From: an uncultured bacterium
GTDB lineage: Bacteria > Patescibacteriota > Doudnabacteria > UBA920
Direction of reading: 5' to 3'
DNA length: 64,000 nt
Assembly (NCBI GenBank): GCA_963749445.1
Contig: CAVVMJ010000010.1
Coordinates: 43,913-107,912, forward strand
The notes below the pieces were generated by a model that was given only the letters and a program-made list of their open reading frames with translations, did no database searches and was not told the DNA's origin. A program made the position numbers and the translations under genes. The stretch's first letter is position 1. Each line of letters starts with the position of its first letter. Shown here piece by piece: positions 1,747 through 52,851 of this stretch.

Positions 1747-4700
1747 TTATCTTCCAACCAATTTCAGAAGCGTTTTGCGCTTTTTTACCACCGCGAACGC
1801 GCCGACCATCAATCCGGCAAAAACAAAAGCGTTGGTATCCGCGCCGGTCTTGGGGGCCACAAGCGCTCCCAAAACCTGCGGCGTGTTGATGTTAATCGTT
1901 ATCGCGTTGCCGTAAGTGTTGGTCATAACGTAATGCAGATTGCTGGCCAAAAAGTACTTAATGCGCACGCGGAACGATTTGCTCACGCTGCCGCCGGCCG
2001 ACACAGTAATGGGCGGATAGTTGATGACATTGCCGGAAAGCGTGCCGCCGCCGTTGTCACTGATGTCCGCGTAAGGCAGAACCTGGGACAAATCATCCGT
2101 GACCACAAAGTTGGTGGCCGGCGAATTGCCGTTATTGGTTACCGTCAAAGTGTAAGTAATATAGTCTTCTTTGGAAGCCGGCTGTGTGGTAGCGTCAACA
2201 TTTTTGGTATCGTTCCAGGCTTTTTTGGCGTATATCAAATTAACATTGCCGCCGAGCACGTTGCCGTTGCCGTTAACGAAGACCCACGCGTCATCCTGCA
2301 CATTCGGCACGCTGTCGCCGCGGGCGCTGGCCGTGTTTTCAATGCTGGTGCCGCTGCCGGCCACAACCTGGGCCTGGAAAGTCGCGGTAACGCTCTGACC
2401 CGTGGAAAGCGAGCCCAAATTCAGGCTGTTGCCATACCAGTTGCTGCCGGAATTATAACCGTTGTTGTAATTATTATTGTTGTAATAACCGCCGCTGACC
2501 TGCGTGCTGCCGGAAATCCATTGCAGGCCGCTTACGCCCGCGTCGGTCAAAACCACATTATTGACGCTGGCGTTGCCCGTGTTGGTCACGGTAATTTGGA
2601 ACTGTACGGTATCATTCACGTTGGCGCTTACGGTTTTTTGGAACGAGCCGCCCGCCGTAATATTCCTGACCATTTTTTGGATGCCCAACTGCACGTACTG
2701 GTTATACGGTACCGGGTTATTATAGTAGTAAGGATTACTGTTGGACGACGCGTAGTAATAATAGGTGTTGGTCGTATTAGTTACGTTGTGGGAATCCGTA
2801 GTATTGGTTGTGGTATTGGTTACATTGTGGGAGTCTGTGGTATTCGTAATGTTATGCGAATCGGTGCTGTAATTTATATTATGCGAATCCGAGGTGTTGA
2901 TAATATTATTGCAGGAATTGTTTATGCAGGTATTGATGTTGTTTGTATTGCCGCCGTTGTTGTTATTTGAAGCCTGCAAAGTTATGGCGATAGTAGAAAG
3001 CAGCTGGTTGCAGCTTGCATCATACATCTTAAATACATAACTGCCGCCGGCCTGCAAATCGGAAACCGTTTGCTGGCCGTTGGCACCGCCGCTGGCAAAA
3101 GCCAGTTCCGCGGAAGAGCCGGGGTTGATGCGGGTTATGCGGATTTGGTTGGTGCCCGATGAAGCCCAGCTTATGGTTGAGCTGTAAGCGCTCCCGTTAA
3201 TCAGCAAAGCAGGCGCGGAATAGTTTAAGGTTGCGCCGGTATTGGAGGTACAAACCTGCGGCTGCTGCGAGACATGGACGCTGCAGTTAGCAGATTGGCT
3301 GCCGCTGGTCACGGTTACTGTTTTGGTGCCGATTGAAGTGTAAGTGACTCCGCTGAGCGTATTGCCCAAGGCCGTGCCGTAATTGGCGCCGGGATCGGAC
3401 CAGTTATAACTGCCGTTGCCGCCGGTAGCGGTAAAGTTTACGGCTTGATTGGTTTGGACGCTGGTCGGGTTGGCAAAGCAGGTTAAAGTTTGCGGCTGCT
3501 GGATGACGATGTTAACAACCGGACAACTCACGCCGTTGACTGTGGTTATGCCGCTGGTTACGCCGGCATTAAAGCGGGTAAGAAAAGTCGTGCCCTGGCC
3601 GGCAAACGGCACGGCGCTTTGCGCCGACCAAGTGTAGGTCTGGCTGGAAACAGGGTTGCTAATAGCGTAAGAGACCTGGTCAGACGGCGCATTGCTGCTG
3701 CCGTTTACTGTGGAAGGGGAAGTTAACTGGCAAATCGGCTGATTATTAACAGGAGCAGAACATTTAGCCGAAGCCTGGGCGCTGGCATTGGCCTGGGCCT
3801 GAGCCTGGGCTTGCTGCTGGGCCTGGCTTTGCGCCTTGTTTTGCGCGTCGGCTTGGCTGACGTTGCTGGTGGCTGTGGCGCTGGCCGAAGCCGAGGCCGA
3901 AGCCGAGGCAAACGAGCCGTCAGGGCAGGAAGCGCTGGCCGAAGCCGTGGCGCTGGCCGTGGCAGTTGCCGTAAACGTTCCGGGCTGAACCTGGATATTA
4001 ATAGTCACTATCGGACAGCTCACACCGTTAACGGTAACCGTTCCGGTAGATACACCGGCGTTAAAGCGGGTAAGAAAAGTCGTACCCTGGCCGGCAAACG
4101 GCACGGCGCTTTGCGCCGACCAAGTGTAGGTCTGGCTGGAAACAGGGTTGCTAATAGCGTAAGAGACCTGGTCAGACGGCGCATTGCTGCTGCCGTTTAC
4201 TGTGGAAGGGGAAGTCAACTGGCAAATCGGCTGATTAGCCGGAGCCTGGTTAACCAAAACCGAACAATTGGCGCGCTGGCCGTCAATGCTGCTGACGCTG
4301 GCGGTCTGCGTGCCAACGACACTGTAGTTAACGGTATAACTGGTATAATCCGCCGAAGCGTTCGCCGAAGAAGCGTTGCTGGTAGACCAGCCATAAGCGC
4401 GGCTGGTATCGCCGCCACTGGCGGTAAATACAACCGGTTGACCAAGAGTAATCGAGGCAACGTTGGCGCTGCAGGTTAAAGTCGGAAACTGAGTAGGAGT
4501 GCTACCGCAGCTCAAACTCGGCACAGGCACGTATTTATCAATTTGCGGATAACCATCCGCGGTTAAATAGAAATGTACGGTTTTACCGGGAGTCAACCAC
4601 GGGGCGTCTTGTCCTCCGAAGGGGCTGTTGGCAGCCGCTGCAAATAAACTAGGCTGGCCGGTGGAAGTATTAACTACATAGACTTTAACATTGTTTAAAT

Positions 4701-6642
4701 TGGAAGATGTCCAAGTCACGGTGCCGTCATACAAACATTGATTATAAAGCTGGTTGCCTACCTGGACGTTCAAAGTGGCACTACCGGCCGGAGGAGTGGG
4801 CGTACTGCCGCAGCTCAAAGCGGGCACAGGGACATACTTGTCGATTTGCGGATAATTATCGGCAGTCAAGTAAAAATGGACGCTGGTGCCCGGGGTCAAC
4901 CACGGCGCATCCTGGCTGCCACTTACAGCCGCGGCAAACAAACTCGGCTGGCCGGTTGAAGTATTAACCACGTAAACTTTAACATTGTTTAAATTAGAGG
5001 AAGACCAGGTGACAGTGCCATCATATAAACACTGGTTAGCAACCTGGCTGTTAACCTGAACATTTAACGTAGCGGTGCCGGCCGGAGGAGTGGGCGTACT
5101 GCCGCAGCTCAAAGCGGGCACATTGACGTATTTATCAATTTGCGGATAGTTGTCCGCGGTTAAGTAAAAGTGGACAGACGTGCCCGGAGTAAGCCACGGA
5201 GCATCGGAATTCCCCGAAACGGCGGCGCCGACTAAGCTGGGCTGGCCGGTGGAAGTGTTAACCACGTAGACTTTAACATTGTTTAAATTGGAAGATATCC
5301 AAGTCACGGTGCCGTCATATAAACACTGACCGGAAACCTGTCCGTTAAGATTAACATCCAAAGTAGCTGTGCCGGCCGGAGGGGTAGGCGTACTGCCGCA
5401 GCTCAAAGCAGGCACGCTGACATACTTGTCAATTTGCGGGTAACCATCCGCAGTTAAGTAGAAATGGGTGCTGGTGCCGGGAGTGAGCCACGGCGCATCC
5501 TGGCTGCCACTTACAGCCGCGGCAAACAAACTCGGCTGGCCGGTGGAAGTGTTAACCGCGTAAATTTTAACATTATTTAAATTAGAGGAAGACCATGTGA
5601 CAGTACCATCACCCAAACACTGGCCACTAACCTGGCCGTTGTAGCTTACATCCAAAGTGGCGGTGCCGGCCGGAGGAGTAGGCGTACTGCCGCAGCTCAA
5701 AGCAGGCACGCTGACATACTTGTCAATCTGCGGATAACCATCGGCGGTTAAATAAAAATGGGTGGATGTGCCGGGAGTGAGCCACGGGACATCTGCGTTG
5801 CCGCTTGTAGCGGCGCCAACCAAACCAGGCTGGCCGGTGGAAGTGTTAACCGCGTAAACTTTTACATTATCTAAACCTGAAGAAGTCCATGTTACAGTAC
5901 CATCGCCCAAACACTGGCCACTAACCTGGCCGTTATAGCTTACGTCCAAAGTGGCGGTGCCGGCCGGAGGGGTGGGCTGGGTTTGGCCGGTAACGGTAAC
6001 GGTAAAATAAATCAGTCTGATATAACCAAAACACGCCGGCTGGTCAGGCAAAGAAGCCGAAGAGTTTACAAAATTCAAGCTGCCCTGCCCAATGGGATCC
6101 ATATTCGGATCGCCGGTTCTCGCGCGCCATTGCTGGCCGCTGGCCGAAAGCGTTGTGCCGGAAAGCGTATTAATGTACATCTGGCCGTTTAAGGAATTGG
6201 AAGTGTTGTTAGCCGTAACCGAGGCGGAAATCATGTGACTGTCCGATGTGTTACTGTCAACCGTGGCGCTGACCTGTTCGCCGGTAGCCGCGGGGCCGCC
6301 CACGACCGCGCCGTTGTGCACATATAAAACAAATTCCACCTGGTCGCCGGGCTGGGCGCTAATCATATTATTTTCCGTATCGCCCTGCCAATCGCCGACA
6401 GCTTGCCCGTTGCGCACAATCTGGGCGCGCATAAACGGGGCGTCATTACAGCCGCCGCCGGTATGGGAAATTGAGTAAGGATTTAAAATCGGCGTGCTAA
6501 AAGTCGGGGTGCAGTCGGTTTCCGCGTGCAAAGAATTAATAACCCGCGGAGCCGCGGCCAAAACCGTCAAAGATACCGCAAAAAAACTCACCGCTAAAAC
6601 TGCGCCGACCTTGAAATTTAAAACCTGAGTATATTTTTTCAT
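1747..6642 (-). CDS. giant secreted tandem-repeat cell-surface protein (1631 aa) with sortase-type sorting signal
   Basis: N-terminal signal peptide with hydrophobic core. Five 98-aa (294-nt) tandem repeats. A duplicated roughly 90-aa module, Ser/Ala and Asn/Thr low-complexity tracts, and DUF11-like TVTNNGN segments. C-terminus APKTGAD, then a hydrophobic stretch, then KKRK. Confidence 0.75.
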   Translation of the reverse strand: MKKYTQVLNFKVGAVLAVSFFAVSLTVLAAAPRVINSLHAETDCTPTFSTPILNPYSISHTGGGCNDAPFMRAQIVRNGQAVGDWQGDTENNMISAQPGDQVEFVLYVHNGAVVGGPAATGEQVSATVDSNTSDSHMISASVTANNTSNSLNGQMYINTLSGTTLSASGQQWRARTGDPNMDPIGQGSLNFVNSSASLPDQPACFGYIRLIYFTVTVTGQTQPTPPAGTATLDVSYNGQVSGQCLGDGTVTWTSSGLDNVKVYAVNTSTGQPGLVGAATSGNADVPWLTPGTSTHFYLTADGYPQIDKYVSVPALSCGSTPTPPAGTATLDVSYNGQVSGQCLGDGTVTWSSSNLNNVKIYAVNTSTGQPSLFAAAVSGSQDAPWLTPGTSTHFYLTADGYPQIDKYVSVPALSCGSTPTPPAGTATLDVNLNGQVSGQCLYDGTVTWISSNLNNVKVYVVNTSTGQPSLVGAAVSGNSDAPWLTPGTSVHFYLTADNYPQIDKYVNVPALSCGSTPTPPAGTATLNVQVNSQVANQCLYDGTVTWSSSNLNNVKVYVVNTSTGQPSLFAAAVSGSQDAPWLTPGTSVHFYLTADNYPQIDKYVPVPALSCGSTPTPPAGSATLNVQVGNQLYNQCLYDGTVTWTSSNLNNVKVYVVNTSTGQPSLFAAAANSPFGGQDAPWLTPGKTVHFYLTADGYPQIDKYVPVPSLSCGSTPTQFPTLTCSANVASITLGQPVVFTASGGDTSRAYGWSTSNASSANASADYTSYTVNYSVVGTQTASVSSIDGQRANCSVLVNQAPANQPICQLTSPSTVNGSSNAPSDQVSYAISNPVSSQTYTWSAQSAVPFAGQGTTFLTRFNAGVSTGTVTVNGVSCPIVTINIQVQPGTFTATATASATASASASCPDGSFASASASASASATATSNVSQADAQNKAQSQAQQQAQAQAQANASAQASAKCSAPVNNQPICQLTSPSTVNGSSNAPSDQVSYAISNPVSSQTYTWSAQSAVPFAGQGTTFLTRFNAGVTSGITTVNGVSCPVVNIVIQQPQTLTCFANPTSVQTNQAVNFTATGGNGSYNWSDPGANYGTALGNTLSGVTYTSIGTKTVTVTSGSQSANCSVHVSQQPQVCTSNTGATLNYSAPALLINGSAYSSTISWASSGTNQIRITRINPGSSAELAFASGGANGQQTVSDLQAGGSYVFKMYDASCNQLLSTIAITLQASNNNNGGNTNNINTCINNSCNNIINTSDSHNINYSTDSHNITNTTDSHNVTNTTTNTTDSHNVTNTTNTYYYYASSNSNPYYYNNPVPYNQYVQLGIQKMVRNITAGGSFQKTVSANVNDTVQFQITVTNTGNASVNNVVLTDAGVSGLQWISGSTQVSGGYYNNNNYNNGYNSGSNWYGNSLNLGSLSTGQSVTATFQAQVVAGSGTSIENTASARGDSVPNVQDDAWVFVNGNGNVLGGNVNLIYAKKAWNDTKNVDATTQPASKEDYITYTLTVTNNGNSPATNFVVTDDLSQVLPYADISDNGGGTLSGNVINYPPITVSAGGSVSKSFRVRIKYFLASNLHYVMTNTYGNAITININTPQVLGALVAPKTGADTNAFVFAGLMVGAFAVVKKRKTLLKLVGR
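3470..4235 (-). repeat. duplicated roughly 270-nt module (two copies about 490 nt apart) flanking a Ser/Ala/Gln low-complexity tract
   Basis: aagt(t/c)aactggcaaatcggctgatt at about 3721 and 4212. The protein segment APANQPICQLTSPSTVNGSSNAPSDQVSYAISNPVSSQTYTWSAQSAVPFAGQGTTFLTRFNAGV occurs twice. Confidence 0.8.
4497..6003 (-). repeat. five tandem 294-nt (98-aa) repeats inside the surface protein gene
   Basis: Near-identical DNA blocks starting at about 4500, 4801, 5097, 5391 and 5688 (cgtactgccgcagctcaaagc...). The protein repeats begin TPTPPAGTATL and end PALSCGS. Confidence 0.85.
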
Positions 6643-6980: not shown

Positions 6981-8489
6981 TTATTTGCAGGCGCCCGGCG
7001 TTCCCGGGGCCAAAATGGGATTACAGGTTGTGACCGGTGCCCCCGGCGGCTTGGCTGGCTCCGTTTGCGTCGTTGTTGTTGTACCGCCGCCGTGATGCGT
7101 GGCAGCGATAATCGCGCCGGCCGCGGCAATCGCGACTACAATCGCAATCCACCACTTGCTACCAGCCGCCTTGAGCAGACCCTCACAGTGGATAACGCAC
7201 CCATCGTCGGTTGTTACATCAAGGGCAAACTGAACTTCCTTCTTCTTGTTCAGCTCGGCTGTTGTAACGAGCAGCGAGTTATCGCTGCCTGTGACGTTAC
7301 CGTTTACTCCCCACCTAATGGACTTTATCTGCCGACCCTTGAGTTGGGCCGGGGAAATGAAATCAGAGATGTTGAGCCGAATGCCGTCCTTCCCAACCCT
7401 AAAAGTCTGGTTGGGCTTGGAACAAGTCGGGCAAACCGGTTTCGAAGGTAGTGGAGGTGGTGAAGCTTCAACCCTCTTGACCACTACCGCAAACGGGCAG
7501 CTCGATCGCCGACCGAACTGGTCGGTAAGATCAAACGAGCCGGGATAAGTCCCGGGAGCGAAGTTGGTGATCTTAGGGCCGAAGGCGAATACATCTTCGC
7601 GCCCGTCGAGATCAGGGTTAGTGGACTGCACCTCCCCTTTCACCAGCCATTCAGCCTTCAGCCTGAGGTTTTCCGCCGCCCCAATAGCCCTCCCCCTAAA
7701 CTCAAGCACCTGTTCAGGAGTCAAGGAAAAAGGCGGCGTGTCAGTGGTAATGAGGTCGCCGTTCTGCCAAAGTCCGCAGGTTGCGAACCCGGGCCGTGTA
7801 ACTGGCGGCGTCCCTGGTTCGCTTGGCGTGGTCTCAAACCACACTTCCACGAACACATATCCGAAGTTGCCACAAATGAACACCAGATTGATAACGACAG
7901 CTTCGGATTCGATGAAGAATTCACAAGACTGCGTTCTGGCGGCCAGCTCCGGCGGAACCTCCAACTTCTCGTTCACCCCTGTACCATTCGCCATGATCAC
8001 GAACCTGCTCGGTTCGAGTAGCTTACTTGGCTTGCATGCTCCGGCTTCGATCTTTTTCTTGAACTCTTCCTTAGCCTCTGCCGACAAATTCAAACGTTTA
8101 TCTATGGCTTCAAAGAGCTCATCTTGCTGGTTCACGGTCGGCGGCATATTGACGATCGGGGTGGACGTAATGGGATCCCGGCGCCATTCGTGCTGCATGA
8201 CTGTCCAGTCCATGTCTGCGAGCCGCTTCATTTCGGGATCAACGTTCCCCTGCCTTTGCAGGTACGCGTCGATCTCCTCACGGGTACGCAGAACATGGAA
8301 GTAAGTTACCTTGCCATCCTCCACCTTCTTGTAGTCATAGCGCCGGCCGGAGGCTGTCACGCCACCGCCGTTCTGGAGCGTCGTAGGCAGTTGGGTTTGC
8401 GGTTGCTGGGCGAGCACGGACTGAGGTCCGGTCACCATCAACAACGCCAAAATCAAGGCCAGTATCTGGCCCACGTTCATACGATTCAT
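6981..8489 (-). CDS. secreted/membrane-anchored protein of unknown function
   Basis: Likely start MNRMNVGQILALILALLMVTGPQSVLA (signal peptide) with a GGAGG ribosome-binding site upstream. C-terminal TM segment WWIAIVVAIAAAGAIIAA followed by a Gly/Thr/Pro-rich tail. GC content is higher than in neighbouring genes. Confidence 0.45.
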   Translation of the reverse strand: MNRMNVGQILALILALLMVTGPQSVLAQQPQTQLPTTLQNGGGVTASGRRYDYKKVEDGKVTYFHVLRTREEIDAYLQRQGNVDPEMKRLADMDWTVMQHEWRRDPITSTPIVNMPPTVNQQDELFEAIDKRLNLSAEAKEEFKKKIEAGACKPSKLLEPSRFVIMANGTGVNEKLEVPPELAARTQSCEFFIESEAVVINLVFICGNFGYVFVEVWFETTPSEPGTPPVTRPGFATCGLWQNGDLITTDTPPFSLTPEQVLEFRGRAIGAAENLRLKAEWLVKGEVQSTNPDLDGREDVFAFGPKITNFAPGTYPGSFDLTDQFGRRSSCPFAVVVKRVEASPPPLPSKPVCPTCSKPNQTFRVGKDGIRLNISDFISPAQLKGRQIKSIRWGVNGNVTGSDNSLLVTTAELNKKKEVQFALDVTTDDGCVIHCEGLLKAAGSKWWIAIVVAIAAAGAIIAATHHGGGTTTTTQTEPAKPPGAPVTTCNPILAPGTPGACK

Positions 8490-8679
8490 TTCATTAGGCC
8501 TCCTTGGCCCTTTTGATTCTGTTTGGATTTTTTCTCGGCCTCGGGCCGAATTTGTACTTCCTACTTGGTTGGCCCGAGTTGGGTACCGAGTAGATAAGAA
8601 TCGCCAAAAAATAATTAAGGGAAAACCCAAAATAAGGGTTTTCCCTCCTCAAATTATTTGGTAAACCTAATCCACCCGA

Positions 8680-8721
8680 TAATGATTGACTTTTTGACGG
8701 CCGTCAAAAAGTCAATCATTA
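8680..8721. repeat. perfect 21-bp-arm palindrome between the sortase gene and the downstream gene
   Basis: TAATGATTGACTTTTTGACGG|CCGTCAAAAAGTCAATCATTA with no loop. Confidence 0.7.
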
Positions 8722-8740
8722 CTAAAATATTTTAAATTTA

Positions 8741-10255
8741 TTAATTTTCCACTTGCGTTAGCTGGCCAAACACCACCAAACGATATTTCGTGGAACCAAC
8801 CGGCCAGCAGGTGGACAAAGCCACCACGCTCTGGCTGCTGTTTTTAAACTGCGCCTGGTCGCTCGGGCTGTATTGCTGGCGGCCGACCACCACATAATGA
8901 AGCACGTGGGTCTTGCCGTCTGTGGTGGTTACGGTAATGCTGAACGAAGTGTCGTCGGCCAGTTTATCCAGCTGGGTAAAAACGTGATTATAATTGCCTT
9001 TGGCCCAGGAATAATTGCTGGAGTGGCCTGAAATGTAAGTAGTGCCGATTTCGCCGGGCAAAGCCGTGCCGGGATAATGGATGACGCCGCTCTGCAAATC
9101 AGTATTAAAATTTTTGGGGTCCGTGCTCCAAATTAAAGGCGCGTCAATTTTTAATGACGGGATGGAAAGTTTACCCGGAATATTTTGGTTGATATCCAAA
9201 TTTGAACCGCCTAGTTGCTGCCCGGCAGGCAAAGCCACTGGCGGATTCTGCACGGTTGAATTTTGAACGGTCGGATTCTGATTCTGCGCAGTTGAATTCT
9301 GCGCGGCCGGCTGCCCGGCGGCTTGCGAACTGCCGTTTACAGACGGCGCAACCTGTGCCGTTGGCGTACCAAAACCATAATTGCCGACTACGGCGCCGGT
9401 TTGCGCCCCGGCCACCTGGCCGCTTTTTTGCATTTGCGCCAAAGTCTGGCGGTTGGAAATGACTTCAAAATCAAAATACTTATCAATAATCGCCTGCTGG
9501 GCCGAGGTCAGCTTTAAACCGCTGGTCGGGTCAATGCCGGCCTGTAGTGCGTCGCTGTCAGACATGCCGAGACCCATGGTATCGTAAGACTTGGGGTTCA
9601 AATTCAAAAGATATTTCTGGAAGTTGGACAAGCCGTTTCCGGAATTATCCGCGTTGGGATCCAAAACTGATGCTTGGGAAACATCATAATAAAACTGGCC
9701 AATCCATTGCTGATAGCCGGACAGGTTCCCCTGCTGCAGCTGGGCCAAAGAATTCTGCTTTGGCGTTTCGGCCTGGGCTTGGGGTTTTGTCAAAAAACCA
9801 AAATTTAAACTCGCGCCGCTGAAAAAATAAAGATAAACAAACAGGGCCACGGTAAACACCGCCACGTAAGGCGTAACGTTTTTAACGAGGTTCAAAATTT
9901 TATTGCCGCCGGAAGGCGGAGACTGATGCAAATCGCTAATATGTACCGGATCCGGTCCGTGATTAACCGCTTCATCATGCGCGGAGCCAACGCCGGGCAA
10001 ATCGCCAAAAACGGAGTGCTTGTCAGCGTTGTCCAACACCTCGCCCAAATCCACACCCGCGCCTTGGGCAAACAAACTCTTGCCCTCCGGCGCCTTGCCG
10101 AAACCGTCTTTATAACCGGGATCAACGCCGGCGCTGGACGGAGGCGTTTGAGGCGTTAGAGAGAGCGGAATGGGCATACCGAACAACTTGGCAACTTCCG
10201 GAGTTGCCGCCGGGTATTTTTTGGCCAAATTGTCTGTAGGATTATTGTCGCTCAT
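8741..10255 (-). CDS. sortase-family transpeptidase with long N-terminal membrane anchor and low-complexity linker
   Basis: C-terminal sortase domain with His in ISGHSS, active-site Cys in VALSTCWP (TLXTC-type) and Arg in RLVVFG. TM segment near residue 135. Confidence 0.7.
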   Translation of the reverse strand: MSDNNPTDNLAKKYPAATPEVAKLFGMPIPLSLTPQTPPSSAGVDPGYKDGFGKAPEGKSLFAQGAGVDLGEVLDNADKHSVFGDLPGVGSAHDEAVNHGPDPVHISDLHQSPPSGGNKILNLVKNVTPYVAVFTVALFVYLYFFSGASLNFGFLTKPQAQAETPKQNSLAQLQQGNLSGYQQWIGQFYYDVSQASVLDPNADNSGNGLSNFQKYLLNLNPKSYDTMGLGMSDSDALQAGIDPTSGLKLTSAQQAIIDKYFDFEVISNRQTLAQMQKSGQVAGAQTGAVVGNYGFGTPTAQVAPSVNGSSQAAGQPAAQNSTAQNQNPTVQNSTVQNPPVALPAGQQLGGSNLDINQNIPGKLSIPSLKIDAPLIWSTDPKNFNTDLQSGVIHYPGTALPGEIGTTYISGHSSNYSWAKGNYNHVFTQLDKLADDTSFSITVTTTDGKTHVLHYVVVGRQQYSPSDQAQFKNSSQSVVALSTCWPVGSTKYRLVVFGQLTQVEN

Positions 10256-17828: not shown

Positions 17829-18629
17829 CTAGGTTAAAATCTTCCACGGGGTGGCTAAAGCAACAATAGTAATCGCCAACGCGACCAAAACTAAGTGAAA
17901 TTGGATTTTTTTGACGGTTAAAGTCTGGAACAAATGGTAGTAGTTTAAAATCAGGCAAAAATAAAACAGGCAAAGCAGTATCAGTCCCTGGGCCGAATAA
18001 TGAAGCGGCAAAAAACTTTCCGCCCAAAACAGCTCGGCGGAAAACAGGCTCAATGCCAGGGCCGCCACCCACTTGGTCTTATCCGGCTGGGGGACAAATT
18101 CGTAAAACGCGCGGCTAAGAAGCAAGGTCACAAAAAATACGCCGAGCAAATAGAGCGGCTGCAGGGAAAACTGCCAGTTGAGCAAATGCCAGCGGCCCAG
18201 ATGCACGGCAATTTGGTGAAAATCCGGAAAAAATTGTCCGGCGGCCGAAAGGCCCAGCAGCAAACCGAAAGCAATCAGCAGCGTTTCATTAATCACCATA
18301 TTTTCCGTGAAATTGCCCAAATTGACTTCCGCCAAAAAAATCACCACAGCCGCGCTGGCCAAAAACCAACCGCGGAACACGGGCGTGGGCAGCATAAAAA
18401 AAATCGCGAAGCCGCTGAAAAACTGCAGCACTGACCGCGTTAAAATCCAGGGGTTGTATTTTTGGACGGACAATAAATATTTTTTGTTATAGTAAGCCAC
18501 CGCGCCGCAAAACAACAAAAAAACCGGCAGCATGATGCGGAACACAGGCTGCGGATTTGACAAGCGCCAAAGGACTGCGGCATACAGCACCCCAATGACG
18601 GCGGAAATTATTTTATGTTTTTGGAACAT
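17829..18629 (-). CDS. polytopic membrane protein (hypothetical)
   Basis: 266-aa ORF with 7-8 predicted TM segments. Confidence 0.4.
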   Translation of the reverse strand: MFQKHKIISAVIGVLYAAVLWRLSNPQPVFRIMLPVFLLFCGAVAYYNKKYLLSVQKYNPWILTRSVLQFFSGFAIFFMLPTPVFRGWFLASAAVVIFLAEVNLGNFTENMVINETLLIAFGLLLGLSAAGQFFPDFHQIAVHLGRWHLLNWQFSLQPLYLLGVFFVTLLLSRAFYEFVPQPDKTKWVAALALSLFSAELFWAESFLPLHYSAQGLILLCLFYFCLILNYYHLFQTLTVKKIQFHLVLVALAITIVALATPWKILT

Positions 18630-19482
18630 TGCGGTAAAGATATATCAAAACGCAAAAACTTATTGCGGCCAGGAGCAAACTGACCAGAGCGTTAAGTCGG
18701 AAAGCCCCAATAAAAGTACTGTCAATTCTTAAAAACTCCAAACAAAATCTCAGTAAATTATACAATAAAAAATAAGAAAAAGCAACGAGCCCCGCTTTTT
18801 GTTTCTTGCCGATTTTGAGCAAAAAAATCAGGATAAAAGTATTGCCCACGACTTCATACAAAAACCAAGGGTGAAAAAAATTATAATTGACAAAAATTTC
18901 CGGACGGAATTGCAATGGCACAAACATTTTCCAGGGCAGGTTCGTTGGATAACCGAATGCTTCGTAATTAAACAGGTTGCCAAAACGGCCGATAATTTGG
19001 CCTAGCAAAACACACGGCGCGAGCCAGTCTAAAAGAGGGCTAAGGGCTAAGGGTTTAGGGCTAAGTCTCCGATAAATTTCTAATATCAAAATGCCGCCGA
19101 GGACAGCGCCGTAAATGGACAAGCCGCCGTTCCAGACTTTAAAAATATCGATCGGATATAGCCGGTAATACCCAATGGACGAAAGCACGTGATATAATCT
19201 GGCCCCGATGAAACCGCCAATAATCACCCAAAATAAAATATCCTCGGCTTGCTTTGGGGTTATCCCAAAAGTCGATGATCTTTTCATCGCGAGATAAAAG
19301 CCGGCCGCCGCCGCAGCTGCCATTATAAGCCCGTAATAATGAATGGTAACCAACCCGATACGGAAGTATTGGGGAAGAATTATACGACCAGAAAAGACGC
19401 GTTGCAAAAAGAAAACCAAGGCTATCAAACTCGCGCCAACTAGCCTAATAATGACCTTCCTCGATTTTGAGGCAAGAAGCAT
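18613..19482 (-). CDS. lgt: prolipoprotein diacylglyceryl transferase
   Basis: Lgt signature IGRFGNLFNYEAFG and multi-TM topology. Carries an in-frame short repeat insertion encoding LSPKPLALSP. Confidence 0.8.
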   Translation of the reverse strand: MLLASKSRKVIIRLVGASLIALVFFLQRVFSGRIILPQYFRIGLVTIHYYGLIMAAAAAAGFYLAMKRSSTFGITPKQAEDILFWVIIGGFIGARLYHVLSSIGYYRLYPIDIFKVWNGGLSIYGAVLGGILILEIYRRLSPKPLALSPLLDWLAPCVLLGQIIGRFGNLFNYEAFGYPTNLPWKMFVPLQFRPEIFVNYNFFHPWFLYEVVGNTFILIFLLKIGKKQKAGLVAFSYFLLYNLLRFCLEFLRIDSTFIGAFRLNALVSLLLAAISFCVLIYLYRNVPKT

Positions 19483-19528
19483 GAAGTAAGAGTCAAGGAA
19501 CTTAATTCTTAACTCTTGATTCTTGCCT

Positions 19529-30210: not shown

Positions 30211-30403
30211 AATTATTTTTCGACCTCGTGGAGAAGATAATTTTGTCCCCGCGCAATCGAAAAGTTTAGTGCTTTCATTATGCCACAGTTGATAAAAAAA
30301 TCAAAATCTGGTAAGATTGGTAGGACTTATAGGACAAATAAGGCTGATAAGCCACATGTGCTTGCAATCTTAAATCCAAAATCATAAATCTAAAATTATT
30401 CAT

Positions 30404-30478
30404 GGCGCTATCGTCTAATGGTCAGGACGAATGGTTCTCAGCCATTAAATCAGGGTTCGATTCCCTGTAGCGCTACCA
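30404..30478 (+). tRNA. tRNA-Glu (anticodon CTC) with encoded CCA
   Basis: Cloverleaf: acceptor GGCGCTA/TAGCGCT, D-stem GTCT/GGAC, anticodon stem AATGG/CCATT with loop TTCTCAG, T-arm CAGGG-TTCGATT-CCCTG. Confidence 0.85.
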
Positions 30479-32128: not shown

Positions 32129-32368
32129 ATACCCGCGGCCAAAGCACACCCCTGAATTCGTTGTTCACGATTAGCGGAACGCCGCGCAAACTTTGCACGC
32201 GCGCGGAAATTTCACTCACCGGGCATCGGTGGGCGCGGTTTGATCCGCAGGAGCAATGCGCGCATAAGCCGGAAAGTTGGCTCACAATGTTCAATTTTTG
32301 CTTTTCAAGTTCGCTCATAAATTAGTGAGTAGTTAGTAGCGGGTAGTCAGTAGCCAAACAGAATGTGC

Positions 32369-32722
32369 TCAATTTTTGTTTTGAATAAGCTTGTTAAGCA
32401 TTTTCATAACCTCCTCAAGCAAGCTGTCAACTTTTGAAAAATCCAAGCCTTTGCCGAAAGGCAATCTTTTTGCTATTTCTATTTGGGTTTCCAATTCGGC
32501 TCCGGAAGCAAAAGCAATCGACAAAAAATGATAAAACTCATTATCCCCGAATCTACGCCTGCCCTCGGCAATATTTGACGGAATAGAAACTGAGCAACGG
32601 CGAGACTGCGAAACTAAACCATACAACTCATTCGGTGGATATCTTTCCGTAAGCTTATATACTTCAACGACTAAATCCATTGACTTGCGCCAAACAATTA
32701 AATTTTTGTAATCCGCGTACAT
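32369..32722 (-). CDS. four-helix-bundle protein (TIGR02436; 23S rRNA intervening-sequence protein family)
   Basis: SIPSNIAEGRRRF...EFYHFLSIAFASGAELETQIEIAKRL signature. Confidence 0.75.
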   Translation of the reverse strand: MYADYKNLIVWRKSMDLVVEVYKLTERYPPNELYGLVSQSRRCSVSIPSNIAEGRRRFGDNEFYHFLSIAFASGAELETQIEIAKRLPFGKGLDFSKVDSLLEEVMKMLNKLIQNKN

Positions 32723-32765
32723 ACTTCGTCATACTGGCTACTTACTACTAACTACCATCTACTTA

Positions 32766-33380
32766 CTACTCAAGGTTTCTAATGACTCCAACCACCTTCC
32801 CCTGCACGCTCCATTCTTCCTTGGGATAAATGTTCTTATAGTCCGGATTCTCGGCTTTTAAGTAGGCGCGGTTTTTTACGTAGACCAGCCGTTTAACCGT
32901 GGCTTCGTCGTGCAGCAGCGCCACCACGATTTCGTTATTTTTGGCTTCCTTGGTCGGCCGCACGATTACCAAATCGCCCTCAAAAATTCCGGCGTTTATC
33001 ATGCTGCCTCCGCGCACCTTAAGCAAGAACACATCGCGCCGGCCTTTAATTAAGCTGGAAGGCAAATTAATCCATTCTTCAATTTGCTCTTCGGCCAAAG
33101 TCGGCACGCCGGCCTGGATGGCGCCCAGTAAAGGCACTCTGATTAGCCCTTTTTGCAAACTTTCGCCCAAAGTCTTTAGCACTTCAATGCCGCGCGCCTT
33201 GCCGGAAATCCTGATAAAACCTTCGCTTTCCAAAGCGTTCAGCAATTTAGCCACCCCGTTTTTGGATTTGACCTTAAGGTAAGTGGCCATTTCCGAAATG
33301 GACGGCGGCAAATTGTATTCCCGCACCTGCTTAATGATGAATTGGAGCAGTTCTTTTTGGCGCTGTGTGATTTTGTCCAT
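32766..33380 (-). CDS. lexA: LexA repressor
   Basis: N-terminal winged HTH; cleavage site region AIQAG (Ala-Gly); S24 catalytic Ser in GGSMINAGI and Lys in TVKRL. Confidence 0.85.
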   Translation of the reverse strand: MDKITQRQKELLQFIIKQVREYNLPPSISEMATYLKVKSKNGVAKLLNALESEGFIRISGKARGIEVLKTLGESLQKGLIRVPLLGAIQAGVPTLAEEQIEEWINLPSSLIKGRRDVFLLKVRGGSMINAGIFEGDLVIVRPTKEAKNNEIVVALLHDEATVKRLVYVKNRAYLKAENPDYKNIYPKEEWSVQGKVVGVIRNLE

Positions 33381-33490: not shown

Positions 33491-33578
33491 AGCTAATAGC
33501 GCTTAGCGTTTAGCGATTAGCCTAACAAAAACCAGCCCTTTATGGCTGGCTAAACGCTAAATGCTAAACGCTAAATGC
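33491..33578. repeat. large imperfect palindrome built from TAGCGTTTAGC units around a central hairpin
   Basis: AGCGCTTAGCGTTTAGCGATTAGCC ... CCAGCCctttaTGGCTGG ... CTAAACGCTAAATGCTAAACGCTAAATGCT. Confidence 0.7.
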
Positions 33579-33815
33579 TCATTTCGTATTCAGCAAAAAC
33601 TTAATAAACTCCACCACCCCCTGCCAAATATTCTGCAGCATTGGCACCGATGTCGGCAGTAAAATCAGCAGGGCAATAATAAAAATAAAATCCTTTTTTA
33701 CCACCTTAAAAATGGAGTAGACCAAAAATATGGCCAAGGCGATGGAAATGACCGGCCGCGTGTTGACCGGAAAGTTGGCAAGAAACTGCAGGTAAAGGGA
33801 CTGAATTTGGTCCAT
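33579..33815 (-). CDS. small membrane protein (hypothetical) immediately upstream of lexA
   Basis: Start chosen at MDQIQSLYLQ. The longer track ORF translates the upstream repeat array. Two TM segments. Confidence 0.4.
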   Translation of the reverse strand: MDQIQSLYLQFLANFPVNTRPVISIALAIFLVYSIFKVVKKDFIFIIALLILLPTSVPMLQNIWQGVVEFIKFLLNTK

Positions 33816-33820
33816 AGAAT

Positions 33821-33920
33821 AATTGACAAGATTTAAAAGATTTAAATGATTGACAAGATTTTCAACTGGCAATCTTGCTCAATCATGTCAATCTTGTCAA
33901 TCTTGTCAATCTTGTCAATA
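33821..33920. promoter_or_regulatory. array of about six ATTGACAAGAT motifs (two forward, four reverse at 9-bp spacing) upstream of the small membrane gene
   Basis: AATTGACAAGATTT at 33821 and 33850. ATCTTGTCAAT at 33888, 33897 and 33906, with a partial fourth reverse copy ending near 33918. Each contains a TTGACA hexamer. Confidence 0.5.
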
Positions 33921-37056: not shown

Positions 37057-38421
37057 TCAGAATGACGCCCTTGATAAATAATCTCCGATAATTTGCCTGG
37101 TTTCGTCCAGGTTTTTTGTTTGCATTAGCTTGGCGCGTAGCTCGTGCGCGCCGGCAAAACCGGAACAATAAGCTTTAAAATGCTTGCGCATAATCGCGAA
37201 TGATTTATTTTTGCCAAGTTCCCGGTCAAACAGTTCCGCGTGTTCCAGCATGACGCGGAGGCGTTCTTTTATGTCCGTCTGGTAATTATCATCGCGAAAT
37301 ACCCAAGGGTGCCCAAACGCTCCCCTGCCGATCATTACGCCGTCGCAACCCGTCTCCGCGACGCGCGCCAGCCCTTCCTCGCGCGACTTAATGTCGCCAT
37401 TCCCGATAATCAAAGTCTTAGCCCTTAGCCCTAAAACCTTAGCCCTGATATTCACCGCCTCGGCAATCTTGTCCCAATGCGCCGGAACTTTGGACATTTC
37501 CTGTTTGGTACGGCCGTGCAAAATCAGCGCCGCGATGTCCATCGCGAGCAAATTTTCCACCCATTTTTCCATCTCCGATGTTTTGCTGTAGCCGATGCGG
37601 GTTTTGACTGATATCGGCACCAAAACCACCTCCCCCCTCGGCTTCGCTCGGGGTACTCCTCCTTGAAAAGGAGGAGAGCTCCGCACTTTATCCGATAACG
37701 GGGACAATTGCGGAGCCTCCCCTCCTGTTAAGGAGGGGTGTCCCGCGGAGCGGGACGGGGTGGTTGGAGATTGCACGGATTGTCCCGACAGCCACCCTTC
37801 TTTTGTCGCGCTGATGATTTCCCAGGCGAGTTTCGGTTCGCGGATAAGCGCCGCGCAAGTCCCGCCCGCAATTTCTTTTTGCTGCGGACAGCCCATATTA
37901 ATGTCAATGCCGTCAAATTTTAAATCGCGGATGATTCGCGCGGCCTCTTTAAATTTTTCCGGGTCGCGCCCCCACAACTGCGCCACAATCGGTCTCTGCG
38001 CTTCGCTGTATTTTAAATCGATGGATAAATTTTTCCTGCCTTCCGGATGCGTCAACCCGTCCACGTTTATAAATTCCGTGAACGTAACAAAATTATTACC
38101 ACCTCCCCCGCCTTCGGCGGGTACTCCTCCTATGAGAGGAGGAGAGCTCCGCAAAATATTCGAGGATAACCGCGGAGCGCTCCCCTCCTTTTTTGAGGCC
38201 TTGATGAAGGCAAAGGAGGGGTGGCTCGCGCAGCGAGACGGGGTGGTACTTCCACTTTTAACTTTTAATTTTCCACTTTTAACTTGCCCGCCATAGCGGG
38301 CCACCATCTCCCGAAACGCAAAGTCAGTGACTTGCTCCATCGGAGCCAAGCAAAATATCGGTTTCTTTAAATTATTCCAAAAATTATTCATTGCGCAAGC
38401 AAACGACCTCTCTGTCGCCAA
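37057..38421 (-). CDS. tRNA-dihydrouridine synthase (Dus family; specific paralog not determined) carrying three in-frame repeat-element insertions
   Basis: CLAPMEQVTDFAFREMV, DINMGCPQQKEIAGGTCAAL and IGNGDI motifs. At 454 aa versus about 330 expected. Inserts correspond to family F1 copies at 38098-38240 and 37625-37766 and a short TTAGCCCT repeat at 37416-37451. Confidence 0.8.
   Translation of the reverse strand: MATERSFACAMNNFWNNLKKPIFCLAPMEQVTDFAFREMVARYGGQVKSGKLKVKSGSTTPSRCASHPSFAFIKASKKEGSAPRLSSNILRSSPPLIGGVPAEGGGGGNNFVTFTEFINVDGLTHPEGRKNLSIDLKYSEAQRPIVAQLWGRDPEKFKEAARIIRDLKFDGIDINMGCPQQKEIAGGTCAALIREPKLAWEIISATKEGWLSGQSVQSPTTPSRSAGHPSLTGGEAPQLSPLSDKVRSSPPFQGGVPRAKPRGEVVLVPISVKTRIGYSKTSEMEKWVENLLAMDIAALILHGRTKQEMSKVPAHWDKIAEAVNIRAKVLGLRAKTLIIGNGDIKSREEGLARVAETGCDGVMIGRGAFGHPWVFRDDNYQTDIKERLRVMLEHAELFDRELGKNKSFAIMRKHFKAYCSGFAGAHELRAKLMQTKNLDETRQIIGDYLSRASF
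37625..37766. repeat. palindromic repeat family F1, copy A (module order 1 then 2), inside dus
   Basis: CCACCTCCCCCC..GGGGTACTCCTCCttgaaaaGGAGGAGAGCTCCGC ... GCGGAGCCTCCCCTCCtgttaaGGAGGGGTG..GGGACGGGGTGG. Confidence 0.85.
38098..38285. repeat. palindromic repeat family F1, copy B, plus adjacent tandem TTCCACTTTTAACTT x2, inside dus
   Basis: Same module structure. Module 2 is nearly identical to the copies at 62499 and 63405. Confidence 0.85.
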
Positions 38422-39149: not shown

Positions 39150-39238
39150 AATATTAGTTGATTTCTGAATTCCGGATTGCGGATTGCGGATTAATCCGTA
39201 ATGCGTAATTCGTAATTCGTAATAAATTAATTAATAAT

Positions 39239-40892: not shown

Positions 40893-40995
40893 ATGCCTTT
40901 AATTATAGCACTTTTCTTTTTTACCCAGATTTTGTATAATATATCAGTTACCCGATGTTAATCGTTAATTGTAAATTGTTAATCGTTGTCCGCAT

Positions 40996-41069
40996 TGGGG
41001 TGTAGCCAAGCGGTAAGGCAAGCGGCTCTGAACCGCTCATCCCAGGTTCGAATCCTGGCACCCCAGCCA
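40996..41069 (+). tRNA. tRNA-Gln (anticodon CTG) with encoded CCA
   Basis: TGGGGTGTAGCCAAGCGGTAAGGCAAGCGGCTCTGAACCGCTCATCCCAGGTTCGAATCCTGGCACCCCAGCCA; the U1:A72 pair and overall sequence are close to E. coli tRNA-Gln. Confidence 0.85.
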
Positions 41070-48171: not shown

Positions 48172-48732
48172 TCAAAGCCCATTTTTTGCTTCTAAAACGT
48201 TTAACTGTAATGATTTTTTTATCTCTTCCAGCGCTATTTGTTTGTTTTCTAAACTTTTAACCTCTGTCACTTTGTTTTTCTGTCGGCCCACTTCGCGGTA
48301 AAAGGCCGTGCATTTTTCCAAAAAGCCCGGCGGCAAATTATCAGCGTCAAGATATTTACCGGCAAGTTCGTCGTCCAGAGGCACAACAATAATTTTATCA
48401 TCCACTTCGCCGCGGTCAATGGTTTTTAACATACCGACCGCTTTGCACTTCACGAACTCGCCCATCTTAATCGGCGCGGATGACAAAACTATGGCGTCCA
48501 AAGGGTCACCGTCGCCGCCCAAAGTGTGCGGAATGAATCCGTAATTAAAAGGAAAAACCAAATCCTTAAATACAAAATCCAATTTTAAACTGTCTGAGGC
48601 TTCGTCGTACTCGTACTTTAAATTACTCCCTTGCGGAATTTCCACAATGACGTTAAAAGCCTCCAAACTGCCAAAAGGAATTTGTTCCAGATTAATTTTG
48701 TCATTTTTATTATTTTTACTCATTTTTGTCAT
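48172..48732 (-). CDS. ppa: soluble inorganic pyrophosphatase (family I)
   Basis: Core region FNVIVEIPQGSNLKYEYD...LDFVFKDLVFPFNYGFIPHTLGGDGDPLDAIVL. Confidence 0.85.
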   Translation of the reverse strand: MTKMSKNNKNDKINLEQIPFGSLEAFNVIVEIPQGSNLKYEYDEASDSLKLDFVFKDLVFPFNYGFIPHTLGGDGDPLDAIVLSSAPIKMGEFVKCKAVGMLKTIDRGEVDDKIIVVPLDDELAGKYLDADNLPPGFLEKCTAFYREVGRQKNKVTEVKSLENKQIALEEIKKSLQLNVLEAKNGL

Positions 48733-50138
48733 TACCCAATTATTCCGCCGCCAACGCACACTTTACCCTTATATAATACCAAACTCTGCCCCGAAGCGAC
48801 AGCTTTTTGGGGATCTTTAAAGGTTACGCGATAAAGGCCATTTTTAATTTTGTCGATAGTTAGCGGCACCAGTTGGCCCTGGTGGCGGTAGCGGCCAACT
48901 AGGGCTAAGGGTCTAGGGCTAAGAGCTAAGTCGCTTTTGCTTAGCCCTATAACCTTAGCGCTTAGCCCTGTTTGCCCAATCCAGTTCACGCTATAAATTT
49001 GTACTTCTTTCGTCATCAGATTTTCGTCATCCGGATTATTTGTAACGTACAACGCATTGCTCTTTAAATCTTTTCTTACCACATAATACGGCCCGCCGGC
49101 GCCAACATGAATTCCCTGCCGCTGGCCGATGGTATAGTTAAATAATCCCTGATGTTGGCCGATTATGTTTCCTGAAATTGCAAGTGCAGCCGACTTGTCC
49201 GCCGAAGCTTCAGCGAAGGTGGAAGCAATCCCGTCTTTTATGGGATTGCCACGTCGCCCCTCCGGTGCAGTCGGGGCTCCTCGCAATTTCAAATCAGAAG
49301 AAACAAGAACAATCGGACCCGGTTTTGGCTTTAACCTCTGTTCCAAAAAATCTTTTAATCTTATCTTGCCGACAAAGCACAGTCCCATACTCTCTTTTTT
49401 CTCGGCGTTGGGCAGATCGATTTTCCGCGCCAGCGCGCGCACCGCCGATTTTTTCATCCCGCCGATGGGAAACAACAAATGCGGCAGCTGGTGGGTTTTG
49501 ATGTTATAGATAAAGTAGGTCTGGTCTTTAAATTCGTCGATACTGCGCATAAGACCATACCTAACTCCAACCTCCTCCCCCGCCTGACGGCGGGTACTCC
49601 TCCTTAAAAAGGAGGAGAGCTCCGCGGAGCCGCCAAGAACATCTGCAGAGCCTCCCCTCCTGCCAAGGAGGGGCGTCTGCGAAGCAGACGGGGTGGTATG
49701 AATCTGCGCGTAATGGCCGGTGGCCAAATAATCAAATCCGTTTTGCATTGCCCAGTTATACAAAAGTTTGAACTTGATTTCCTTATTGCACATCACGTCC
49801 GGGTTGGGGGTGAGGCCTTTTTTGTATTGGTCAAAAAAATAACGCATCACGTTTTTTTGGTACTGTTTTTCAAAATCCAAAGTATGCAGCGGAATTCGCA
49901 AAAACGCGGCCACGCGCAGCGCGTCCTGGCGATCTATTAGCCACGGACATTCGTTTTTTAAAAGCCCGGCCGTGGAAGACCAATTCTTCATAAACGCGGC
50001 CTCAACTTCGTAGCCCTGCTTAATCAGCAAATACGCCGAAACCGCGGAATCAATCCCGCCTGACAGGGCGATTAAAACTTTTCGTTTCTTAACTCCCCCT
50101 CTTTTGAAAAGAGAGGGCTGGGGGAAGTTCTTTTTCAT
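48732..50138 (-). CDS. mnmA: tRNA-specific 2-thiouridylase MnmA carrying in-frame repeat-element insertions
   Basis: PP-loop LIALSGGIDSAV; KDQTYF; C-terminal domains. The F1 copy at 49566-49700 encodes a 46-aa insert. A TTAGCCCT repeat at 48901-48972 encodes ALSPRPLAL. A mini-hairpin sits at 50091-50130 near the N-terminus. Confidence 0.85.
   Translation of the reverse strand: MKKNFPQPSLFKRGGVKKRKVLIALSGGIDSAVSAYLLIKQGYEVEAAFMKNWSSTAGLLKNECPWLIDRQDALRVAAFLRIPLHTLDFEKQYQKNVMRYFFDQYKKGLTPNPDVMCNKEIKFKLLYNWAMQNGFDYLATGHYAQIHTTPSASQTPLLGRRGGSADVLGGSAELSSFLRRSTRRQAGEEVGVRYGLMRSIDEFKDQTYFIYNIKTHQLPHLLFPIGGMKKSAVRALARKIDLPNAEKKESMGLCFVGKIRLKDFLEQRLKPKPGPIVLVSSDLKLRGAPTAPEGRRGNPIKDGIASTFAEASADKSAALAISGNIIGQHQGLFNYTIGQRQGIHVGAGGPYYVVRKDLKSNALYVTNNPDDENLMTKEVQIYSVNWIGQTGLSAKVIGLSKSDLALSPRPLALVGRYRHQGQLVPLTIDKIKNGLYRVTFKDPQKAVASGQSLVLYKGKVCVGGGIIG
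49566..49700. repeat. palindromic repeat family F1, copy C, inside mnmA
   Basis: CCTCCTCCCCCGCC..GGGTACTCCTCCttaaaaaGGAGGAGAGCTCCGCGGAGC ... CTCCCCTCCtgccaaGGAGGGG..GACGGGGTGG. Confidence 0.85.
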
Positions 50139-51788: not shown

Positions 51789-51818
51789 ATCTTGATGTTA
51801 GTTGTTAATCGTAAATTG

Positions 51819-52784: not shown

Positions 52785-52851
52785 TATTTTGTATTAAGAA
52801 GTACGGCAACTTTCTCCCTTAACTCTTAACTCCTAATTCTTAACTCTTGTC

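Follow-up and report, generated by a model that had tools for sequence, protein, structure and literature searches.

The window analysed here is a stretch of 64,000 nucleotides (nt) from an uncultured bacterium of the Doudnabacteria (Patescibacteriota; assembly GCA_963749445.1, contig CAVVMJ010000010.1, positions 43,913 to 107,912). It carries the housekeeping genes lgt, dus and mnmA, each of which contains, within its open reading frame (ORF), one or two short runs of the heptanucleotide TTAGCCC (AGGGCTA on the other strand). A preliminary description, made from the letters alone, had presented these runs as a degenerate, microsatellite-like family with units of 8-9 nt, restricted to genes that host larger elements or to their neighbour. 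The observation is real but was mis-measured, and the phenomenon is broader than a three-gene family. In Doudnabacteria-like Patescibacteria, weakly constrained DNA very often consists of heptamer arrays, whether in intergenic spacers, in tRNA and T-box leaders or in variable loops of proteins; the unit of the array varies by site and by species, and the units within an array evolve in concert.

The TTAGCCC arrays of lgt, dus and mnmA

Tandem Repeats Finder (TRF) assigned the arrays a period of 7 nt, not 8-9 nt, with 4.3 copies each in lgt and dus. The lgt array (19036-19065) reads AGGGCTA AGGGCTA AGGGTTT AGGGCTA AG on the forward strand, that is, CTTAGCC CTAAACC CTTAGCC CTTAGCC CT in the sense of the gene, which encodes LSPKPLALSP (residues 140-149). 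The dus array (37417-37446) lies antisense relative to the lgt copy: its forward letters are CTTAGCC CTTAGCC CTAAAAC CTTAGCC CT, and its sense strand, AGGGCTA AGGTTTT AGGGCTA AGGGCTA AG, encodes RAKVLGLRAK. The element in mnmA (48901-48969), to the product of which Pfam assigns three MnmA domains, had been taken for a single tandem run; it is in fact built of two arms of 30 nt in inverted orientation, separated by a loop of 9 nt (23 codons over 69 nt, encoding GLSAKVIGLS-KSD-LALSPRPLAL). As RNA, this element folds into a long imperfect hairpin (-38 kcal/mol, z = -3.0); folding gave no RNA structure for the single lgt array (z = -0.13).

The sequences were thus confirmed at their places, and all three elements read in frame, as had been claimed. 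That they form a genuine repeat family is borne out by shuffling: TTAGCCCT has 12 exact matches in the window against 2.19 expected, a count reached by none of 100 shuffles. Ten of the 12 matches fall inside lgt, dus and mnmA, and the other two (23133 and 33143) are lone single copies.

Successive units of 7 nt fall in each of the three reading frames in turn; a unit with TAA or TAG on its sense strand therefore gives an in-frame stop every third unit. In the deviant second unit of the lgt array, the would-be in-frame TAG reads AAA; in the deviant unit of the dus array, the would-be in-frame TAA reads TTA; and in mnmA the TAG is displaced by one base. The same holds on a larger sample. Among 51 coding arrays, 40 of the 94 mismatches hit would-be in-frame stop codons, which account for 10.8% of the positions. 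Twenty-five of these arrays have no TAA, TAG or TGA on the sense strand, and coding arrays with a stop-free unit are purer (7.0% mismatches versus 11.2%). The odd unit of coding arrays, the one first noted as 'degenerate', thus appears to be the unit whose TAA or TAG would be in frame, mutated because an ideal array would place a stop codon there.

The array sites in related genomes

The relatives examined are 80 genomic loci around lgt (1.32 Mb); codes of the form L0xx and L1xx denote fetched relative loci. The nearest proteins come from metagenome-assembled genomes of Candidatus Doudnabacteria and other Patescibacteria, the best Lgt besides the window's own being 70% identical (5.8 billion proteins searched).

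The 10-residue segment encoded by the lgt array has the same length in nearly all of 29 aligned homologs, and in Escherichia coli Lgt (structure 5AZB) it is only 2 residues shorter. The alignment check proposed in the preliminary description, which looked to an insertion at this position, therefore revealed no gain in length, and the lgt array does not appear to be an inserted element. It had been conceded there that an equivalent segment in homologs would make the array an ancestral sequence that merely resembles a repeat. The equivalent segment does exist, but the mere resemblance does not hold, for about half of the relatives have a heptamer array there. Indeed, the homologous peptides typically end with the three residues with which they begin (LSTKHLALST, LFTNHYSLFT, LLTTHYSLLT), and the underlying DNA is built on other units: CTATTCA (L002), CTACTCA/G (L005 and L013), CTTAGCA (L007), ATTATCA (L017) and CTTTTCA (L042); the loop of L020 is likewise a heptamer array.

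The loop as a whole measures 75 nt in 19 loci, in which the array region is always 30 nt long and in frame. Over these loci, identity at lag 7 reaches 0.62 within the array region and drops to about 0.27 in the flanks; the other short lags (3, 5, 6, 8 and 9 nt) give 0.22-0.26 in the array region, and lag 14, twice the period, gives 0.63. At the periodic loci, units are 0.86 identical within an array, while over the same 30 nt identity between species is 0.54, compared to 0.72 for the next 60 nt. Units that are alike within the array and divergent between species indicate concerted evolution of the lgt array at one fixed position; L005 and L013, for instance, differ by an identical A/G change in three of the four units. 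The codon phase shared across species, together with a common CTNNNCA skeleton, argues for descent in place rather than repeated replacement.

Decay is seen at the lgt loop of other lineages: it is half periodic in L003 and L024 and non-periodic in L001, L027 and L033. In L167 (about 2916-2945), a peptide close to that of the window, LSPRPLALSS, is encoded by TTAAGTC CTAGGCC GTTGGCC CTTAGTT CG. This loop is a decayed array, the periodicity of which was removed by synonymous changes, and its peptide appears subject to ordinary purifying selection.

Several relatives have small GC-rich hairpin elements nested in frame in the lgt array, namely L006, L018, L062 (30 nt), L030 (two elements of 21 nt), L034 and L067 (36 nt). 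These elements are of the CCGCC...GGCGGACAGG type and encode peptides such as ...SADRQ and ...MADKQ; the heptamer array resumes in phase on both sides, and in L030 the element is tandemly duplicated along with one heptamer. We considered whether the arrays are footprints of 7-bp target duplications made by such elements, and rejected this idea since the phase of the array is unbroken, with no duplication, in L062, L018 and L006.

The mnmA site, located between HSVNWI and GR[YF]RHQG, is variable among homologs. The shortest MnmA homologs have a single 10-residue segment of similar shape (YQLSAISYQL, LRLKIKDLRL), and in L082 the site is a perfect (CAATATC)4. The second arm of the window element sits where these shorter homologs have their single array; the window, L161, L162 and L163 possess in addition an upstream arm and a loop, which make the window's element 39 nt longer than that of the shortest homologs. 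As judged from these alignments, the insertion reading would thus fail for lgt and hold only partly for mnmA. The paired units of the two arms differ between relatives: AGGGCTA/TTAGCCC in the window and L161, AGAGGGT/AAACCCT in L162 and AGTAACA/ACTTTCA in L163. Hairpin energy declines across this set (-38, -35, -27 and -8 kcal/mol for the window and L161-L163), and in L163 each arm is internally uniform although the two are no longer complementary (-7.8 kcal/mol). Because the L163 arms are uniform yet unpaired, the comparison points to homogenisation within each arm rather than to selection for the hairpin.

The dus array spans a loop of 6, 9 or 12 residues in homologs, and the loop of L165 is a perfect (AAATTCC)4. 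In an AlphaFold model of MnmA (mean predicted local distance difference test score, pLDDT, of 60), the array residues and both larger insertions of that protein are unstructured, with a pLDDT below 50.

Among the MnmA relatives listed (mostly about 35% identical), heptamer arrays occur at 8 per 100 kb. The metagenome contigs L085-L160 (MnmA about 35% identical, among the matches listed) also have arrays and hairpins within mnmA, grouped at about 360-510 nt from where the tblastn match starts; this cluster, found on many unrelated contigs, apparently corresponds to the first variable site after ATGHYA. Since these contigs carry mnmA arrays too, the phenomenon would extend beyond the Doudnabacteria-like clade.

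Arrays across the lineage and elsewhere in the window

Seven is the commonest TRF period in the 1.32 Mb of relatives, with 257 arrays compared to 116 for period 8 and 161 for period 9. The length histogram of period 7 has a further mode at 30-35 nt, beyond which counts fall steeply, a feature absent at other periods, and a typical array has about 4.3-4.9 units (30-34 nt). The units are AT-rich and diverse, 145 canonical units being represented among 274 arrays. Arrays of at least 24 nt number 23.4 per 100 kb in the window and 15.2 in Doudnabacteria-like loci, against 0.4 in distant lgt loci (SR1, Bdellovibrionales, Acidimicrobiia and others) and 2.0 in a 50-kb stretch of E. coli, the two controls; the densities of periods 9 and 12 are equal across all groups compared.

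About 89% of the DNA is coding (according to crude ORF calls), yet 120 of the 172 arrays lie between genes or at gene edges, and the intergenic enrichment is roughly tenfold. About 30% of the arrays lie in frame within conserved protein genes, at positions kept across species. An inverted partner was found within 90 nt for 25 of the 120 non-coding arrays, as opposed to 1 of 516 random controls. Relative to transcription, the non-coding arrays display no orientation bias (A against T, 42:43; G against C, 48:40). In the spacer before an rfbA-like gene, often occupied by inverted GGAATTA/TAATTCC pairs, TAATTCC-type arrays range from 26 to 60 nt (about 3.7-8.6 units) between species, and L039 and L045, with 92% identity over 13 kb, show wholesale replacement of array-bearing stretches. 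In the literature searched, we found no published report of heptanucleotide arrays in Patescibacteria (the candidate phyla radiation).

A T-box-like leader, the Stem I region of which is an inverted pair of heptamer arrays, was detected in L039 (7596-7828, minus strand). It matches the entire model of Rfam RF00230 with 34.9 bits (E = 4e-6), which is short of the gathering score, 93. Similar stretches exist in L059 (about 8480-8640) and L032 (about 8720-8880); at the corresponding place, L045 has unrelated sequence without a heptamer array.

In the window itself, TRF found 17 period-7 arrays versus 1.5 in dinucleotide shuffles (all array counts are those of TRF, our own lag-7 scanners being too strict and missing most arrays). 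Twelve of the 17 are 30-33 nt long. Their units are varied, CTTAACT, GTTAATC, AAGTTAA, TAGTNAG, GCTAAAC and TAATTCG among others, and most of them are intergenic (Table 1), which contradicts the supposed restriction to the genes with larger elements and their neighbour. The tie to those genes is best read as a sharing of permissive sites, because arrays of the same kind occur in hisS, in intergenic spacers and in tRNA leaders.

Table 1. Coordinates of heptamer arrays and associated features in the window (ORF, open reading frame)
Feature	Position	Strand	Context
lgt heptamer array, TTAGCCC family	19036-19065	-	ORF 18613-19482, Pfam LGT
CTTAATT array	19501-19524		fills the spacer directly upstream of lgt
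Period 7/14 array (AATCTTA AATCCAA...)	30366-30396		7 nt upstream of tRNA gene 30404-30475
TAGTNAG array	32323-32353		one side of ORF 32369-32722 (117 residues)
CTACTNA (CTACTAA) array	32738-32770		other side of ORF 32369-32722; inverted counterpart of 32323-32353
Inverted array pair TAGCGNT / GCTAAAY	33497-33579		intergenic; flanks GC-rich terminator-like hairpin 33530-33551
dus heptamer array, TTAGCCC family	37417-37446	-	ORF 37057-38421, Pfam Dus
AAGTTAA-family array, N-terminal variable site of dus (QVKSGKLKVKSG)	38254-38285	-	in frame; adjoins larger GC-rich element 38119-38247
Inverted array pair ATTGCGG / TAATTCG	39169-39223		intergenic, between convergent ORFs; RNA hairpin -28.4 kcal/mol, z = -5.5
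GTTAATC array	40957-40987		8 nt upstream of tRNA gene 40996-41066
mnmA second arm (sense order)	48901-48930	-	CTTAGCT CTTAGCC CTAGACC CTTAGCC CT, encoding LALSPRPLAL
mnmA 9-nt loop separating the arms	48931-48939	-	encodes KSD with flanking bases
mnmA first arm (sense order)	48940-48969	-	ORF 48732-50138; AGGGCTA AGCGCTA AGGTTAT AGGGCTA AG, encoding GLSAKVIGLS
TGTTAAT array	51796-51827		3' end of peptidase_S11-like ORF 51819-52784, extends into spacer
CTTAACT array	52818-52848		spacer upstream of ORF 51819-52784
AAGTTAA-family array, hisS-like gene	56466-56496	-	in frame in ORF 56399-57691; array at orthologous position in L161 and L163

Some of these sites can be followed in relatives. The spacer directly upstream of lgt also consists of an array, with units other than those of the window, in L001, L005, L007, L013, L015, L028, L034 and L042, and no two of four syntenic genomes (the window, L161, L162 and L163) have the same array or hairpin in the spacer between YbaB and the peptidase. 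The N-terminal site of dus has about 14 extra residues compared to some homologs. Within the window, the GTTAATC array at 40957-40987 and the TGTTAAT array at 51796-51827 are identical at 27 of 32 positions and have their deviant third unit in common.

Other features were noted alongside. Two of the three tRNA genes of the window have an array 7-8 nt upstream, in the leader that separates a promoter-like TATAAT from the tRNA; at the gathering level, Rfam recognised only tRNAs in the window. The larger elements of dus (37651-37764 and 38119-38247) are two GC-rich, internally palindromic copies of about 115-130 nt, 82-89% identical, one of which stops 6 nt from the heptamer array at 38254-38285. 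Those of mnmA correspond to residues of about 147-193 and 283-325. The larger elements read in frame, giving peptides of the TTPSR...HPS...GGVP type, and insertions related to them occupy these sites in homologs. Period 9 is represented by an inverted pair of arrays (AAGATTTAA / CAATCTTGT; 33828-33919), which has TTGACA-like hexamers in its units and coincides with several promoter-like matches on both strands. Finally, a 294-nt tandem repeat (4632-5977; 4.6 copies, 80% matches) lies inside an ORF of 1631 residues (1747-6642) and probably encodes repeated domains of a large surface protein.

Origin of the arrays and comparison with known systems

We favour, as a reasonably probable explanation, that the TTAGCCC runs belong, as unexceptional cases, to a class of short heptanucleotide arrays that spans the lineage and is akin to the STRR (short tandemly repeated repetitive) elements of heterocystous cyanobacteria; slippage or misalignment would keep the arrays uniform and selection would merely filter them. 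Units would be homogenised by slipped-strand mispairing or by transient misalignment of the template in a 7-nt register, possibly assisted by conversion between arrays with a common unit, and arrays would persist wherever constraint is weak. In coding DNA, selection would only retain lengths that are multiples of 3 (30 nt, or 10 codons) and remove stop codons, the encoded peptides (LSP-KPLA-LSP and the like) being by-products devoid of a function of their own. The inverted pairs of mnmA and of many spacers can form long hairpins that may act on RNA between genes; at mnmA, the structure is not kept.

Several points weigh against this explanation. The homogenising process is one that we infer rather than observe, the nearest Lgt relative being only 70% identical, and the L167 segment, at least, behaves as an ordinary selected coding sequence. 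Plain slippage accounts neither for the preference for 7 nt nor for the sharp peak in length at 30-34 nt, which is seen even between genes. Moreover, one and the same unit recurs at unlinked sites of a genome, with deviant units alike. This is the case of the four TTAGCCC arms, of the 40957 and 51796 arrays, and of L007, where a second CTTAGCA array (at 2062) lies 8 kb from the lgt array of the same unit. More generally, arrays of one locus share identical units 2.3 times as often as arrays of different loci. Such recurrence hints at copying between sites, which slippage in place does not predict.

Copying is the essence of a reading close to that of the preliminary description, which we regard as unlikely: every array would be one copy of a tiny element, about 30 nt long and either mobile (non-autonomous) or copy-pasted, that spreads through a genome in both orientations and survives in genes only in frame, within tolerant loops. 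Apart from the L007 pair and the within-locus excess of identical units, it would accommodate the presence of the four TTAGCCC arms in three unlinked genes and in both orientations, with deviants that share changes (CTAAACC, CTAAAAC, CTAGACC, CTATAAC), the resemblance of the 40957 and 51796 arrays, deviant unit included, which are both non-coding, the sharply peaked length, and the extra 39 nt of mnmA and about 14 residues at the dus N-terminal site relative to some homologs. It is difficult to reconcile, however, with an lgt loop whose length is unchanged by the array and whose units, related but differing and in the same codon phase (CTNNNCA), fit descent in place. Nor do 145 unit types among 274 arrays, with no common termini, inverted ends, target duplications or consensus, evoke a mobile element; the within-locus enrichment is weak, and in one instance, L026, what was duplicated is a longer segment, flanks included.

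Quite unlikely, in our estimation, is that the arrays are made and kept uniform by a dedicated lineage-specific polymerase, primase or recombinase, one that would write or convert DNA in patches of about 31 nt while holding to a 7-nt register. The arrays would then be a new kind of self-renewing micro-repeat, able to overwrite DNA free of constraint, even in loops of essential genes, and to leave the length of that DNA as it was. If it existed, such an activity would account for the 30-34 nt length, for the roughly 40-fold lineage-specific excess and for the recurrence of units at unlinked sites.

A functional role in cis, either as sites that an oligomeric protein, binding RNA or DNA, would read in steps of 7 nt or as selected RNA hairpins (terminators, stabilisers or translational couplers), seems very unlikely. 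The model for such a site is HutP, which reads UAG-N4-UAG-N4-UAG, and in many units TAG or TAA does recur at constant intervals of 7 nt. The arrays share no triplet or motif, though, with 145 units in use and a stop-like triplet on the sense strand in only about half; a HutP-like register was rejected for want of a shared motif and of strand bias. The conserved positions of arrays beside start codons, stop codons and tRNA 5' ends would suit a cis-element, as would the inverted pairs, which fold far better than shuffles and one of which (33497-33579) flanks a terminator-like hairpin; an effect on transcript stability or coupling has been proposed for cyanobacterial hairpins of this sort (PMC2670836). 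Against this stand the absence of orientation bias relative to transcription, the unstructured single arrays such as that of lgt, the decaying complementarity of the mnmA arms and the wholesale replacement of array-bearing spacers between genomes that are 92% identical.

An ancestral loop, a compositional accident or protein-level selection for a Pro/Leu-rich or heptad-like peptide is extremely improbable, in spite of the equal-length segment at the lgt site of homologs and the retention of LSPRPLALSS in L167 through synonymous changes, for chance is rejected by the shuffle controls, the periodicity is confined to lag 7 (and its multiple 14) and to a 30-nt segment, it recurs with unrelated peptides (LFTNHYSLFT, VINYQLSIIN, IFNLKFKISN), and the same class of array is commonest in non-coding DNA. 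Peptide selection as a general cause was discarded on the evidence of the lgt loops; L167 indicates that it can take over once an array has decayed.

Whatever their origin, heptanucleotide arrays have been for decades a curiosity of heterocystous cyanobacteria and of the statistics of bacterial simple sequence repeats (SSRs), without a mechanism, and the same type of array is now seen at high density in an unrelated, genome-reduced lineage. Orthologous arrays that evolve in concert within housekeeping proteins are natural replicates (one site, many species, differing units) which could be used to measure the homogenisation of arrays and the limits of their length. Many puzzling low-complexity insertions and differences in length seen in Patescibacteria proteins are explained by the arrays together with the nested GC-rich elements; both can mislead gene calling, alignment and domain annotation.

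Among known systems, the Rickettsia palindromic elements (RPE) and the repetitive extragenic palindromic (REP) sequences and their REPIN doublets are in-frame palindromic insertions or small dispersed repeats; Elhai reportedly described, in 2008, small dispersed repeat (SDR) elements of cyanobacteria that are nested in other repeats. The arrays share with these the tolerance of short repeats in loops of protein genes and the occurrence of hairpin-forming pairs, and the small GC-rich hairpin elements nested in the lgt arrays of relatives recall the SDR. The arrays differ from all of them in having no conserved consensus, terminal repeats, target duplications or gain in lgt length, and we saw no transposase associated with them. 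This category suits the window's larger elements (37651-37764 and 38119-38247) better than it does the heptamer arrays.

Heptanucleotide SSRs are over-represented in prokaryotes, as PMC4692102 relates in citing Mrazek et al. 2007, and polymerase slippage has been proposed as the source of the excess of bacterial heptamer repeats (PMC4692102). Like these SSRs and the phase-variable contingency loci, the present arrays have a period of 7 nt, which is not a multiple of 3, and differ in copy number between species at non-coding sites. Unlike contingency loci, the arrays are short (4-5 units), those of the lgt site are all 30 nt long across species, and the hosts of the coding arrays are housekeeping genes (lgt, dus, mnmA and hisS); this constant span in such genes is why they would not serve as on/off switches.

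The best match is with STRR, which comprise a few fixed unit sequences per genome (STRR1-3) and which are not known outside heterocystous cyanobacteria. Vioque is said to have found STRR inside the gene for RNase P RNA in 1997, and the parallel here is the T-box-like leader of relatives, with its stem made of arrays. The differences are that our arrays belong to an unrelated phylum, the Patescibacteria, that they use 145 AT-rich unit types in place of a few fixed ones, that their length peaks sharply near 31 nt, and that about 30% of them lie in frame in conserved genes, at orthologous positions and with stop-avoiding deviant units. STRR are 7-bp repeats that form hairpins between genes of operons and are of unknown function (PMC2670836; PMC4692102). 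The same traits are found here: head-to-tail units of 7 nt in short arrays that are dispersed mainly outside genes and often inverted in pairs able to form hairpins between genes. By analogy, the STRR heptamer repeats would be the closest known relatives of the arrays described here, from which they are set apart by their few fixed units and their cyanobacterial hosts.

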